From contig OZ024740.1 of the NCBI GenBank assembly GCA_964016885.1, positions 237,894,001 through 237,958,000 of the forward strand: a DNA stretch of 64,000 nucleotides, read 5' to 3'. This DNA is from Eledone cirrhosa (lineage: Eukaryota). Positions 14,638-55,858 of the stretch are shown here, in pieces (the first letter of the stretch is position 1; each line of letters begins with the position of its first letter). The translations under genes and the position numbers were made by a program. The notes below the pieces were generated by a model that did not search any database, was not told the DNA's origin, and saw only the letters and a program-made list of their open reading frames with translations.

Positions 14638-17600
14638 ATCATCATCTTCATTTTACGTCCGCTTTTCCCTGCTTGCAGGGGTGGGACGCGTCTTATTCAG
14701 CACAGCATCTCTCCACTTGTCACGGTCCTTTGTCATCTCCACCGTGAGCTTCAGCGATCTGAGGTCTGTTCTCACCACCTCCACCCATGTTTTTCGTGGT
14801 CTACCTCTACCACGTCTTCCTTACCCTGGCATTTCCTGGCACTTCCTTCACCCATCGGTCATCCTCCATACGCATCACATGTCCATACCACCGCAGTCTC
14901 CTCTCCCGTACACTACATTCTATCCCGCTCAGACACAGTTTCTCTCTCAACACATTCATGCTAGGTCTTTCACGCACAATGACACATCCAACGGAGCATC
15001 CTAGCCTCATTTCTCTCCAGCCGTCGCATATCCTCTGCAGTTGCTGCCCATGTCTCACTACCATGCAGCATCGCGCTCCTCACACAGGCATCATATAACC
15101 GGCCTTTCGTACGCAGGGAGAAACCCTTCTTCGTCAGCAGAGGAAGCAGCTCCCTAAACTTCTTTCAGCCTGTTCTTATTCTAGATACTATGCCTCGGAA
15201 CAACCCCCTCCCATGCTAATCTGATCTCCTAGGTACTGGAAGCTATCCACCACTTCTATAGCACCTGCCTGCATTTGAAAAATGTGTCTATCAATGCGAC
15301 TTCTACTGTCAACTTTCCCTGTACATCTACTGCATACATATTTCTCCCTACCTGTTAGTTTGCCTGCTATCCCGCTACATCTCTTGTGTACCCAGGATCT
15401 GCATTGTGTGCATTTTATAGAATTTATACCAGTTCCTTTTCTGCATATCGAACATGGCAATTTCCTTGACGGAATCAGGGTTTTGTCCTCTTTTCTACTC
15501 ATCAACGCTTTTGTCTTAGTTAGGTTCACTCTCAGTCCTCTTGTTTCCAACTGCTGTTTCCATAGCCAGAATTTATTCTCTAGCTCCTCTACTGATTCTG
15601 CTATAAGAACCAGATCGTCAGCATAGAGAAGTTCCCATGCACAGCCAGTCTTAAACTCCTCTGCTATGGCTTGGAGGACTATAATGAACAAGAGCGGGCT
15701 GAGGACCGAACCTTGATGTACTCCTACTTGTATCTGGAATTCCTCACTAAACTTCATTCCTACCCTGACTTTACTGACAGTACCTCTGTACAAAGTTTGC
15801 ATGTCCTCACAAGCCTTTCCTTAGGGACCACTAGATGACAGATCGGGGTACCCTATCAAAAGCCTTCTCTAGGTCAACAAAGGCTAAGTATAGTGGCTTA
15901 TTTTTCTCGAAGAACTTCTCTTGTAATTGTCTCACCCAGAAGAGGGCATCTGTTGTACTCTTCCCAGGCACAAAACCAAACTGCATCTCATCTATTTTGA
16001 CCATTTCTCTAATTAGTTGTGCTAATATCCTTTCTGCCACTTTCATAACCTGATCCATCAGTTTTATACCCCTATAATTTCTCCTCTCCAGATCATCCCC
16101 TTTACCTTTGTAGCAATTTATGAGAATACTGCTGCACCAGTCTTTGGGTATGACACCACCATATATAGCCTGATTGATGATGCATGCAACCAGTTTAGTG
16201 CCCACGTTCCCTGACGCCTTCAGCATCTCAGCAACTATCCCCGATGGTCCAGCAGCCTTACCATTTTTCCTTTCCTAAATCGCCTCTTGGATCCTATATT
16301 CGTCAATCTCAATAGCTGGTCCCTCTGTCGGATCTACTGAGGGTAATTTCTCTCTCTCCCATTCGTTCTCCACATTCATCAGTCTCTCATAATGACATTT
16401 CCAGGCCTCATTTTTCTGATCATTCGTGACACTAAGTACACCGGCATCATTCCGAACACATTTATCTCCAACAACATCCTGATTTGCATTGACACACTGC
16501 ATTGCAATGTGGAACACCGCACGCCTCTGATCTTCTCATCGCAGAACATTGGCAAACCTCCTGCTCTCAGCCTCCCTGCGTGCTAAGTACACCTGACGTC
16601 TAGCTTCTCTCTTAGTGGCTGTATATCCTTCCCTACTCCCACCCTTTTTCCAAGTCTTCCATGCTAGTCTTTTGTCTCTAATGGCCTTACCTACTGTGCT
16701 GTTCCACCACCAGGTCACTCTCTGTTTGGTTGGAGCTCTGCTCCAGCCACAAGTTGTTACGTAAGAAAATCCAATTATTATCAATGTCATACGTCTCTAA
16801 ATCATCTTCTATTCGTCATCCACATCTTGAAGGGCTTTCCTAAATTTGTATTTTAGTGAAAGGTTTTTTAGCTTCCAGACCTTTCTTCTCCACACCTTCC
16901 TGTATGTCTCATTCCATCTCTTACTTACTGAGATATCACTAACGACTAACCTATGCTGTGGGGTACATTCTTCCCCAGGGTATGCCTTGGTATTAGACAC
17001 TATCTGCCTGTCCCGCTGCCTAACTAGTAAGAAGTCAATCTGGCTTATGTGCTCGCCAGATATGTAGGCTATTAGGTGGTTGGCAGGTTTCTAGAAGTTA
17101 GTGTTGCAAATAGTCAGTGTTCTTGCATCACAAAATTCAAGAAGTCTCACTCCTTCTTCATTTCTTGAGCCGTAACCGTGCCCACCATGTACCCCAGTGT
17201 AACCATCCTGGAGCTGTCCAACATGATCGTTGAAGTCCCCTGCTAGTATAACGATGTCTCTGTCCTCTGTCATTGCAGTTGTTTGTAAAAGTTGCTCGTA
17301 AAAGCAGTCTTTCTCTTCTTTACCTAGGCCTGCTTGGGGAGCATAGGCAGAGATGATTGTCAGTAGTCTCCTGCCTGCAACTAATCTAAGCTTAATTATT
17401 CGATTACTAACTCGAACTACCTCTATTGTCTTATTGATCCATATCTCAGCCAGGAAAATGCCTACTCCCCCTAACCCATCATCCTTACCTACCCAGAAAA
17501 GCTTATACCTAAGATGCTTGCCTACGACTAGTCTCGCAGAGGCACCTCTCCATCTCACCTCTTGCACGCAGCACACATCCACATGCCTTCTCTCCAGCAT

Positions 17601-17860
17601 CTCCGCTATTTCAGCAGATCTACCTCTGAGAGTGCCAACATTAAGTGTTGCAACTCTGAGATGCGATGTCTTCATATTTTGTTGTTACTATGTACTTGTT
17701 GCTGTGCTAATAATCGTTTTGGCATTGATACACTGGTTGGATGCCCTTCCTAACACCAGCACTTTACAGCATGGACTGGGTGCTTTTATTTGTGCCACCA
17801 GCACTAGAGAGGATGTCTTACTAGACTCAAGGGCCCTCTCTACCCCTCCATTTTAGAGCA
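14638..17860 (-). mobile_element. Near full-length RTE-clade LINE (APE + RT + Cys-rich insert), decayed
   Basis: APE motifs TLNVGTL, CVQEVRW, SAYAPQ, GDFN (17091-17675). RT motifs NYRGIKL, AFVDLEKAFDRVP, GVHQGSVLSPLLF, LLYADD. (GAT)n tail at 14638. Confidence 0.92.
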
Positions 17861-53479: not shown

Positions 53480-55858
53480 ATGGAGGGGTAAAGAGGGCCC
53501 TTGAGTCTAGTAAGACATCCTTTCTAGTGCTGGTGGAACAAATAAAAGCACCCAGTCCATGCTGTAAAGTGACGTACAGGGCTGTAAAGGGCATACAACC
53601 AGTGTATCAATGCCAAAACGCTTAGCAGCACAGCAACAAATAGATAGGAACAACAAAAAAATATGAAGATGTCGCATCTCAGAGTTGCAAGACTTAATGT
53701 TGGCACTCTCAGAGGTAGATCTGCTGAAATGGCGGAAATGTTGGAGAGAAGGCATGTGGATGTGTGCTGCGTGCAAGAGGTGAGAAGGAGAGGTGTCTCT
53801 GCGAGACTAGTCGTAGGCAAACATCTTAGCTATAAGCTTTTCTGGGTAGGTAAGGATGATGGGTTAGGGGGAGTAGGCATTTTCCTGGCTGAGAGATGGA
53901 TCAATAAGACAATAGAGGTAGTTCCAGCTAGTAATCGAATAATTAAGCTTAGATTAGTTGTAGGCAGGAGACTACTGACAATCATATCTGCCTATGCTCC
54001 CCAAGCAGGCCTAGGCAAAGAAGAGAAAGACTGCTTTTACGAGCAACTTTTACAAACAACTGCAATGACACAGGACGGAGACATCGTTATGCTAGCAGGC
54101 GACTTCAATGGTGATGTTGTACAGCTCCAGGATGGTTACACTGGGGTACATGGTGGGCACGGTTACAGCTCAAGAAATGAAGAAAGATTGAGACTTCTTG
54201 AATTTTGTGATGCAACACTATTTGCAACACTAACTTCCAGAAACCTGCCAACCACCTAATAACATACAAATCTGGCGAGCACATAAGCCTGGTTGACTTC
54301 TTACTAGTTAGGCAGGGGGACAGGCTTACCCCGGGGAAGAATGTACCCCACAGCATAAGTTAGTCGTTAGTGATATCTCAGTAAGCAAGAGACGGAATGA
54401 GACATACAGGAAGGTGTGGAGAAGAAAGGTCTGGAAGCTAAAAGACCTTTCACTAAAATACAAATTTAGGAAAACCCTTCAAGATGTGTATGACGAAAAA
54501 GAAGACGATTTAGAGACGTATGACAGAAAATAACTGGAATTTCTTACGTGATAACTTACTGCAGGTTACTGAGGAAACTTGTGGCTGGAGCAGAGCTCCA
54601 ACCAGACAGAGAGTGACCTGGTGGTGGAACAGCACAGTAGATAAGGCCATTAGAGACGAAAGACTAGCATGGAAGGCTTGGAAAAATGGTGGGAGTAGGG
54701 AAGGATATACAGCCGCTAAGACAGAAGCTAGACGTCAGGTGTACTTAGTACGCAGGGAGGCTGAGAGCAGGAGGTTTGCCAATGTTCTGCGACGGGAAGA
54801 TCAGAGGCGTGCGGTGTTCCACATTGCAAGGCAGTGTGTCAATGCAAATCAGGATGTTGTTGGAGATAAATGTCTCCGGAATGATGCCGGGGTACTTAGT
54901 GTCACGAATGATCAGAAAAGGGAGGCCTGGAAATGTCATTATGAGAGACTGATGAATGTGGAGAATGAATGGGAGAGAGAGAAATTACCCTCAGTAGATC
55001 CAACCGAGGGACAAGCTATTGAGATTGACGAATATAGGGTCCAAGAGGCGATTGAGGAAATGAAAAATGGTAAGGCTGCTGGACCATCGGGGATAGTTGC
55101 TGAGATGCTGAAGGCATCAGGGGACGTAGGCACTAAACTGGTTGCACGCATCATCAATCAGGCTATATATGGTGGTGTCATACTCAAAGACTGGTGCTAC
55201 AGTATTCTCATAAATTGCTACAAAGGTAAAGGGGATGCTCTGGAGAGGAGCAATTATAGGGGTATAAAACTGATGGATCAGGTTATGAAAGTGGCAGAAA
55301 GGATATTAATGCAACTAATTAGAGAAAGGGTCAAACTAGATGAGATGCAGTTTGGTTTTGTGCCTGGGGAGAGTACAACAGATGCCCTCTTCTTGGTGAG
55401 ACAATTACAAGAGAGATTCTTAGCCTTTGTTGACCTAGAGAAGGCCTTTGATAGGGTACCCCGATCTGTCATCTGGTGGTCCCTAAGGAAACTAGGTGTT
55501 GAGGAATGGCTTGTGAGGACAGTGCAAACTTTGTACAGAGGTACTGTCAGTAAAGTCAGGGTAGGAATGGATTTTAGTGAGGAATTCCAGATACAAGTAG
55601 GAGTACATCAAGGTTCGGTCCTCAGCCCGCTCTTGTTCATTATAGTCCTCCAAGCCATAACAGAGGAGTTTAAGACTGGCTGTCCATAGGAACTTCTCTA
55701 TGCTGACGATCTGGTTCTTATATCAGAATCAGTAGAGGAGCTAGAGAATAAATCCTGGCAGTTGGAAACAAGAGGACTGCGAGTGAACCTAGCTAAGACA
55801 AAAGTGTTGATGAGTAGAAAAGAGGACAAAACTCTGATTCCGTCAGGGAAATGGCCAT
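53480..55858 (+). mobile_element. Mirror copy of the RTE LINE, cut at the outer duplication breakpoint
   Basis: APE ORF 53663-54259 and RT ORF 54520-55689; stops at ...PSGKWP followed by (TA)n. Confidence 0.92.

Follow-up and report, generated by a model that had tools for sequence, protein, structure and literature searches.

The genome of the octopus Eledone cirrhosa (assembly GCA_964016885.1) contains an imperfect palindrome of about 40 kb, which lies within the 64,000-nucleotide stretch of contig OZ024740.1 from position 237,894,001 to 237,958,000 (forward strand; hereafter, the window). The palindrome is very probably a genuine inverted duplication. We propose, with a probability of about 0.6, that it arose by fold-back of a copying strand, that it later suffered a one-sided deletion near its center, and that patches of its arms have since been kept alike by arm-to-arm gene conversion. 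The window is 38% G+C and free of N. Its contig measures 442.9 Mb, so that the locus, at 237.9 Mb, is interstitial; the assembly as a whole comprises 3.0 Gb in 1,796 contigs.

Self-BLAST of the window, with tandem repeats masked beforehand, returned inverted matches that form one colinear chain from 15456/55856 to 36461/38397. Base-level alignment placed the outer ends at 15454/55858 and the inner ends at 36461/38397 (Table 1); a preliminary description, made from the letters of the window, had put the palindrome at 15453 to 55858, which agrees with our ends to within 1 bp. The eight aligned blocks make up 11,121 columns, with one piece of about 276 bp counted twice. Arm-specific sequence accounts for about half of the left arm and about a third of the right, and the copied unit comes to about 13 kb once insertions are subtracted and the spacer is restored. 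Among the landmarks described as recurring in reverse order, a long interspersed nuclear element (LINE), a GGT/CCA repeat, a fold-back element, and a LINE 3′ stub were found in both arms; the labels RTE, Tx1, R4, and MITE (miniature inverted-repeat transposable element) given to such pieces are provisional, our tests having covered Pfam domains, and the “R4” piece gave a zf-RVT match below the cutoff. When five arm stretches were searched against their own genome, with 40 candidates scored in this and each other own-genome search, the two arms were the only full-length, high-identity pair; neither a third copy nor an unplaced haplotig appeared among the scored candidates. The symmetry does not resume beyond the arm ends, since no mirrored match lies within 100 kb on either side.

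The spacer had been described as the center of symmetry, but the true mirror axis is a hairpin at its right edge, a remnant that the preliminary description overlooked. Read rightward from the axis, the sequence consists of the loop, 36 bp that mirror the left stem, a jump over 1,855 bp (the mirror of 36462-38316), and then the right arm. A microhomology of 3 bp marks the jump, with positions 38397-38399 both ending the hairpin and beginning the arm. Because the hairpin occupies the right spacer edge and shares this microhomology with the right arm, the spacer is likely arm sequence that was kept on one side and lost from the right side of a fold-back palindrome. The hairpin itself probably represents what is left of the fold-back junction from which the duplication arose. 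Its left stem belongs to a short interspersed nuclear element (SINE)-like repeat whose best other copies are 76 to 81% alike. By eye, two variants common to both stems are absent from most aligned family copies, and the family sequence runs on into the loop when the latter is read on the minus strand. At two of the three stem mismatches the left stem carries the derived base, and at the third the right stem does; both stems have therefore aged since copying. The remainder of the SINE-like repeat, which would identify the original neighbor of the spacer, was not found near the arms in either flank, where only about 30 to 45 bp would be expected. Within the rest of the spacer are a fragment of an old LINE (37205-37747) and, from 38172 onward, an old SINE-like repeat; the spacer portion at 36462-37200 has no second genome match among the 40 scored candidates. 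Matches of microRNA families to the hairpin and to (AT)n sequence fell far below gathering scores, and we took them as shape matches.

At its outer edge, the palindrome ends in a LINE that we take to be RTE-type. The left arm boundary (15454) falls inside the left copy of this element, and the right copy ends at 55858, where it joins an (AT)27 tract through a shared AT. Beyond 55910 lie a dispersed repeat of 644 bp (55911-56554), a second (AT)27 tract, and then unique DNA. On the simplest reading, the copying strand left the LINE partway through and switched to the (AT)n tract; alternatively, a longer copy may have been shortened later by deletion. The junction between the LINE and the adjacent fold-back element is identical in both arms and occurs in none of the other scored matches, and this common 5′ junction rules out independent LINE insertions in each arm. 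To date the copies, we compared them with 24 family copies over 2,223 columns and counted 50 substitutions private to the left copy, 51 private to the right, 2 shared and derived, and 10 ambiguous; a second scoring rule gave 51, 52, and 3, respectively, over 2,185 columns. By these private substitutions, each arm has aged by about 2.3% (confidence interval [CI], 1.7 to 3.0%). Shared changes amount to at most about 17% of private ones; therefore, the LINE inserted shortly before the duplication, whether as its cause or by coincidence.

The arms differ by eight arm-specific, repeat-derived segments and one deletion, a result that bears out the preliminary description with respect to insertions and point changes but adds that one difference is a loss. 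A right-only retroposed repeat (40119-40815) is flanked by a 6-bp target-site duplication and thus was inserted after the palindrome formed. Six other segments have (TA)n or (GATA)n tracts on either side, which leave any target duplication unreadable, and for these the direction of change was judged from the element ends. The deletion removed 241 bp from the left arm; at its break (22240-22290), 13 bp of the neighboring sequence are repeated in direct orientation. Short templated repeats at deletion breaks resemble the products of polymerase theta end joining.

Divergence between the arms is uneven. Overall, 236 substitutions fall in 9,861 nonrepetitive aligned columns (2.4%), but from the outside inward the blocks differ by 5.1, 2.9, 3.6, 1.8, 1.9, 1.6, 3.7, and 0.4%. 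Divergence drops toward the spacer (Spearman coefficient of −0.84 over 20 windows), a gradient pointing to later homogenization that the preliminary description also missed. Identity is clustered, with none of 20,000 permutations as extreme whether the inner block is included or left out, although divergence within the LINE coding part is uniform (P = 0.91). The 10 longest identical runs measure 228 to 737 bp, and the longest (35725-36461) adjoins the spacer. Old features nonetheless stand beside this inner block. The hairpin stump, with 3 mismatches in 36 positions, is more diverged than the inner block, with 7 in 1,722 (P = 0.0009), but not more so than the LINE (P = 0.42). Likewise, the right-only repeat at 40119-40815, which adjoins the block, carries private changes in 20 of 688 columns (2.9%; CI, 1.8 to 4.5%), and its 24 nearest relatives carry 0.7 to 2.5%. 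Mutation cold spots do not explain the identical tracts: in an older LINE, the rate of shared derived changes is flat across tracts (5.6 to 5.9%), whereas private changes number 6 in 811 columns versus 18 in 387 (P = 2 × 10⁻⁵). Because identity is clustered and both the hairpin and the right-only insertion beside the inner block are old, the best reading is that patches of 230 to 740 bp were rehomogenized, most completely next to the spacer. The inner parts of the arms were likely kept alike by gene conversion from arm to arm.

We also turned to public sequencing data, for which seven runs are listed. Three of these (X2, X3, and X4) derive from one sample, and the contigs examined are the 32 listed of 323,295 pieces. 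Position 36461 is bridged without a difference by contigs of all three runs (36299 to about 37263). The fold center is bridged by one X3 contig (38295-38384), which stops 13 bp short of the arm. Farther right, at 38536-38789, all three runs have contigs that match exactly. In the inner arm, the contigs are mixtures of the two alleles, with the left version at 39134, 39650, and 40043 (two runs) and the right version at 39180, 39239, 39532, and 39789; hence, both arm versions occur in the reads. The ratio of arm depth to spacer depth is 2.1, 1.9, and 2.3 in the three runs. Depths of arm, spacer, and flank are 20, 9.5, and 7.9 in X2 and 13.4, 7.2, and 12.8 in X3. Run X1, which carries another organism label (0.07 of words), gave no orthologous cover of the flank but just matches of 18 to 27 bp, and its depth was not used; a restriction site-associated DNA run (X5, 6 reads) yielded no locus in the flank. 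Together with the symmetric private changes of the LINE and the insertion with its 6-bp target-site duplication, the bridging contigs at 36461 and at the fold center uphold the first of two origins offered by the preliminary description, namely, an old inverted duplication that later acquired independent insertions.

Based on these observations, we favor the following history. During repair or replication, a strand would have folded back at 38353-38363 to copy about 13 kb in the opposite direction, and the copying strand would have rejoined the chromosome inside the LINE at the (AT)n tract. The resulting near-perfect palindrome, presumably unstable, would then have lost the counterpart of 36462-38316 from its right side via the 3-bp microhomology, leaving 36 bp of stem. 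Since then, the arms have come to differ by the eight segments, the deletion, and, where untouched, the private substitutions described above, while the patches beside the spacer appear to have been rehomogenized. In line with the second step, palindromic junctions have been described in which a secondary deletion widened the spacer (PMC10766186), and a perfect 15.4-kb palindrome in mice accumulated symmetry-breaking deletions (as summarized in PMC8701086).

A one-step origin is unlikely in our view but deserves the most attention among the alternatives. Here, the strand would have folded, copied 47 bases, slipped to a 3-bp microhomology 1.86 kb away, and continued, in which case the hairpin is a templated insert at the fold-back junction and a long perfect palindrome never existed. 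Human fold-back duplications resemble this outcome, as their spacers mostly span a few kilobases, their junctions show inverted microhomology of 2 to 8 bp, and 5 of 21 junctions hold templated inserts of local origin (PMC3907307). Moreover, a break at the center should remove the hairpin tip, which the loss has spared at this locus. However, the loop is oriented as the right arm is, unlike the product of a simple plus-strand self-fold, and to account for it, a one-step origin would need either that the fork switched or that the loop was inverted later.

We considered next whether the gradient could exist without any conversion. A young duplication (at most 0.4% diverged) that had exchanged its outer parts, by recombination, for those of deeply diverged alleles would show high identity at the junction that falls outward, as is seen. 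This allelic mosaic appears quite improbable, however. The inner block has diverged significantly less than the stump at the very center, and identity is patchy rather than falling in one step. In addition, the unique flank 2 kb outside the palindrome (57870-60070, 2,201 bp) is covered by one contig each in X2 and X3, which show 1 substitution and 2 gaps and no difference, respectively, far below 5%. Nine large structural differences within 11 kb would also be extreme for alleles.

Several points weigh against the history that we favor. Low-divergence tracts hold fewer derived changes in total (70/1,293 versus 43/587; P = 0.12). Plain conversion predicts equal totals; therefore, the shortfall needs either chance or a bias toward the ancestral base, such as that reported for the human Y palindrome P6 (PMC3723533). 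The age of the stump rests on three mismatches (CI, 1.8 to 22%), and a later deletion would look the same here as another template switch during the original event. Inspection by eye showed no microhomology at the fold itself and no complementary match across it in the family copies. As for the reads, the evidence comes from one sample, which may be the source of the assembly. Position 38397 is bridged by none of the listed pieces, the nearest of which ends at 38384, and the contig through 36461 has no visible branch, though contigs drop short branches. Finally, flank depth in X2 fits a true duplication, but that in X3 fits a hemizygous spacer.

Some of these points would also be expected if the assembler had joined two haplotypes of one locus head to head, the other origin that had been suggested. 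A hemizygous spacer would likewise give arms at about twice its depth, flank depth equals arm depth in X3, 38397 is unbridged, and the outer junction sits at an (AT)n tract. Even so, such an artifact seems most improbable. As the 264 kb formed by the window and 100 kb on each side contain no N and no mirrored flanks, two false joins would be needed, and a public contig spans the fold center to within 13 bp of the arm. Pooled depth prefers a spacer:arm:flank ratio of 1:2:1 over 1:2:2 by about 4 to 1, a heterozygous duplication fitting equally well. The stronger argument is the near-invariant flank: haplotypes differing by 5%, as the arms do at most, would have to show only the observed 1 substitution in 2 × 2,201 bp at a distance of two kilobases. 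A giant transposon with long terminal inverted repeats finds no support, as the outer ends are the interior of a LINE and an (AT)n tract, the spacer frames have no Pfam match, and there is no other copy among the scored candidates.

Table 1. Features of the palindrome and its surroundings (window coordinates)
Feature	Position	Strand	Remarks
Left arm	15454..36461	+	21.0 kb, about 11 kb of it common to both arms
Right arm	38397..55858	-	17.5 kb, reverse complement of left arm
Spacer, single-copy part	36462..38316		1,855 bp; depth about half of arm
Hairpin left stem	38317..38352	+	Part of local SINE-like repeat
Hairpin loop, mirror axis	38353..38363		11 nt
Hairpin right stem	38364..38399	-	33/36 bases paired
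LINE, left copy	14640..19765	-	Endonuclease, reverse transcriptase (RT), PHD domains; complete to 3′ tail at 14640
LINE, mirror copy	51985..55858	+	Cut about 815 bp before 3′ end, joined to (AT)n tract
(AT)27 tract, outer right junction	55857..55910		
Fold-back repeat element	19766..20662		Both arms; partner about 51036-51984
Older LINE fragment	22266..23560		Both arms; 241 bp of right copy (45581-45821) missing on left
LINE 3′ stub	28241..28944		Both arms; partner 41925-42627
Inner shared block	34739..36461	+	Partner 38397-40118; 7 substitutions and 1 indel in 1,722 columns
Left-only insertion	18112..18661	-	550 bp, ends TC...CTAG in AT site
Left-only segment	21226..21774		Between (TA)n tracts; second copy of 276 bp of adjacent repeat
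Left-only element	25039..25726		171-bp inverted ends (99.4%) in (TA)n tract
Left-only element	25780..28036		Inverted ends, weak GIY-YIG match (E 0.001), in (TA)n tract
Left-only LINE	28963..34325	-	5.4 kb, with (GATA)n tracts on both sides; endonuclease and RT domains
Right-only retroposed repeat	40119..40815	+	6-bp target-site duplication
Right-only high-copy repeat	41034..41860		Between (TA)n tracts
Right-only element	46821..50976		4.2 kb, 172-bp inverted repeats near ends, weak GIY-YIG match (E 0.011), (TA)n tract
Decayed U2 small nuclear RNA (snRNA) copy, left	34878..35079	-	49.9 bits (gathering 46)
Decayed U2 snRNA copy, right mirror	39778..39979	+	41.9 bits (gathering 46)

Several of the arm-specific segments have features of their own. 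The ends of the insertion at 18112-18661 are presumably Helitron-like, and it contains an internal partial repeat (18289-18367 and 18566-18647). The elements at 25780-28036 and 46821-50976 are likely Penelope-like. Hammerhead ribozymes, suspected by eye in the elements inserted in (TA)n tracts, gave no Rfam match. The left-only LINE, which we take to be Tx1-type, is inserted in a (GATA)n tract that follows the 3′ stub of a LINE from a related subfamily (28241-34525). Its nearest family copies are 0.2% apart, indicating a very recent burst, and several of them adjoin a related element. Measured against this very young subfamily, 47 of its 2,990 columns are private (1.6%), a value that serves for dating as an upper bound only.

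No host gene was recognized in the arms, spacer, or flanks, though small exons could be missed. Among 55 short frames from arm, spacer, and flank DNA that does not look repetitive, one matches Pfam, to a retroelement zinc finger. Across the 200-kb flanks, 19 of the 90 long frames scanned (from 212 candidates) match Pfam, all to transposon-type domains. Both U2 snRNA copies are full-length, but their stems are broken and mismatches fall in the 5′ stem and the conserved 5′ region; they are likely pseudogenes.

The surroundings of the palindrome are likewise rich in repeats. The 644-bp repeat beyond the outer junction is 92 to 96% alike to 39 other scored copies, which are flanked by (AT)n and often arranged in tandem at other loci. 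On the left, an element with inverted end repeats (7527-11963) contains a 248-amino-acid frame without a Pfam match and is likely Penelope-like, and a pair of direct repeats, each about 314 bp long and 91% alike, stand 1.5 kb apart at 12085-13939, outside the palindrome, possibly forming a small long terminal repeat-like element. About 51 to 73 kb to the right of the window end, we observed several local inverted repeats of 150 to 390 bp with 97 to 100% identity, which are probably young elements with inverted ends, together with a 975-bp tandem duplication. An apparently intact Penelope-like element lies about 90 kb to the right of the window, where an open frame of 1,183 amino acids on the plus strand encodes an RT and a C-terminal GIY-YIG domain.

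The duplication is in all likelihood old and neutral, and we propose no function for it. Its biological weight is low, as it belongs to a common class, inverted duplications with a spacer, and has no recognizable gene. Its value is that of a specimen, in which the stump, datable transposons, and an identity gradient place fold-back, spacer formation, insertions, and homogenization in order in a wild lineage. The locus also invites an inexpensive genome-wide survey, asking whether other inverted duplications keep a hairpin stump at a spacer edge and lose identity with distance from the spacer. More tentatively, the locus could preserve the whole life of a palindrome: with near-perfect arms of 13 kb, it would have been born almost when the LINE inserted at its outer edge, been stabilized by a one-sided deletion with the fold still visible, and then undergone conversion that weakens with distance and stops at insertions, with no gene to protect. 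If true, this would be direct evidence from the wild that the kilobase-sized spacers of inverted duplications are secondary, as well as a case of neutral, distance-dependent arm-to-arm conversion in an invertebrate.

Three groups of known systems invite comparison; no paper on such palindromes in cephalopods was found in the literature searched, which mostly excludes subscription journals. Hermetz et al. 2014 (PMC3907307) described fold-back duplications that have a single-copy spacer of a few kilobases between two inverted copies, with short microhomology (3 bp here) and a local inverted insert (36 bp here) at the junction of spacer and inversion. Those duplications are new, terminal, and megabase-sized and are accompanied by deletion, translocation, or ring formation, whereas ours is interstitial, about 13 kb, old, and 5% diverged. 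The locus thus works like a duplication of this type but falls outside its terminal class; a mechanism for fold-back inverted duplications has been described in yeast (PMC10622511). The palindromes of sex chromosomes (human Y P6, PMC3723533; mouse X, 10.1101/800185) likewise have inverted arms around a spacer with identical tracts of hundreds of bases, and the hint of a bias toward the ancestral base recalls P6; an autosomal palindrome has been published from mice (PMC13688818). The present arms differ in being >99% identical over the inner 1.7 kb only, rather than across >10 kb, and in decaying by transposon insertion with no recognizable host gene. A short-loop palindromic junction, seen here as an 11-nt loop and a 36-bp stem, is shared with the model of Brewer et al. 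2024 (PMC10766186), which is based on origin-dependent inverted-repeat amplification (ODIRA), and one-sided loss that widens the spacer is shared with that model and with the center-break revision of palindromes in mice (PMC8701086). Unlike an ODIRA triplication, the locus has two copies and no second palindromic junction, its outer junction leading from a LINE to an (AT)n tract. Moreover, the ODIRA-based model expects the first junction usually to be erased, whereas its stump survives here. The type of rearrangement is already known, but its history is unusually readable at this locus.

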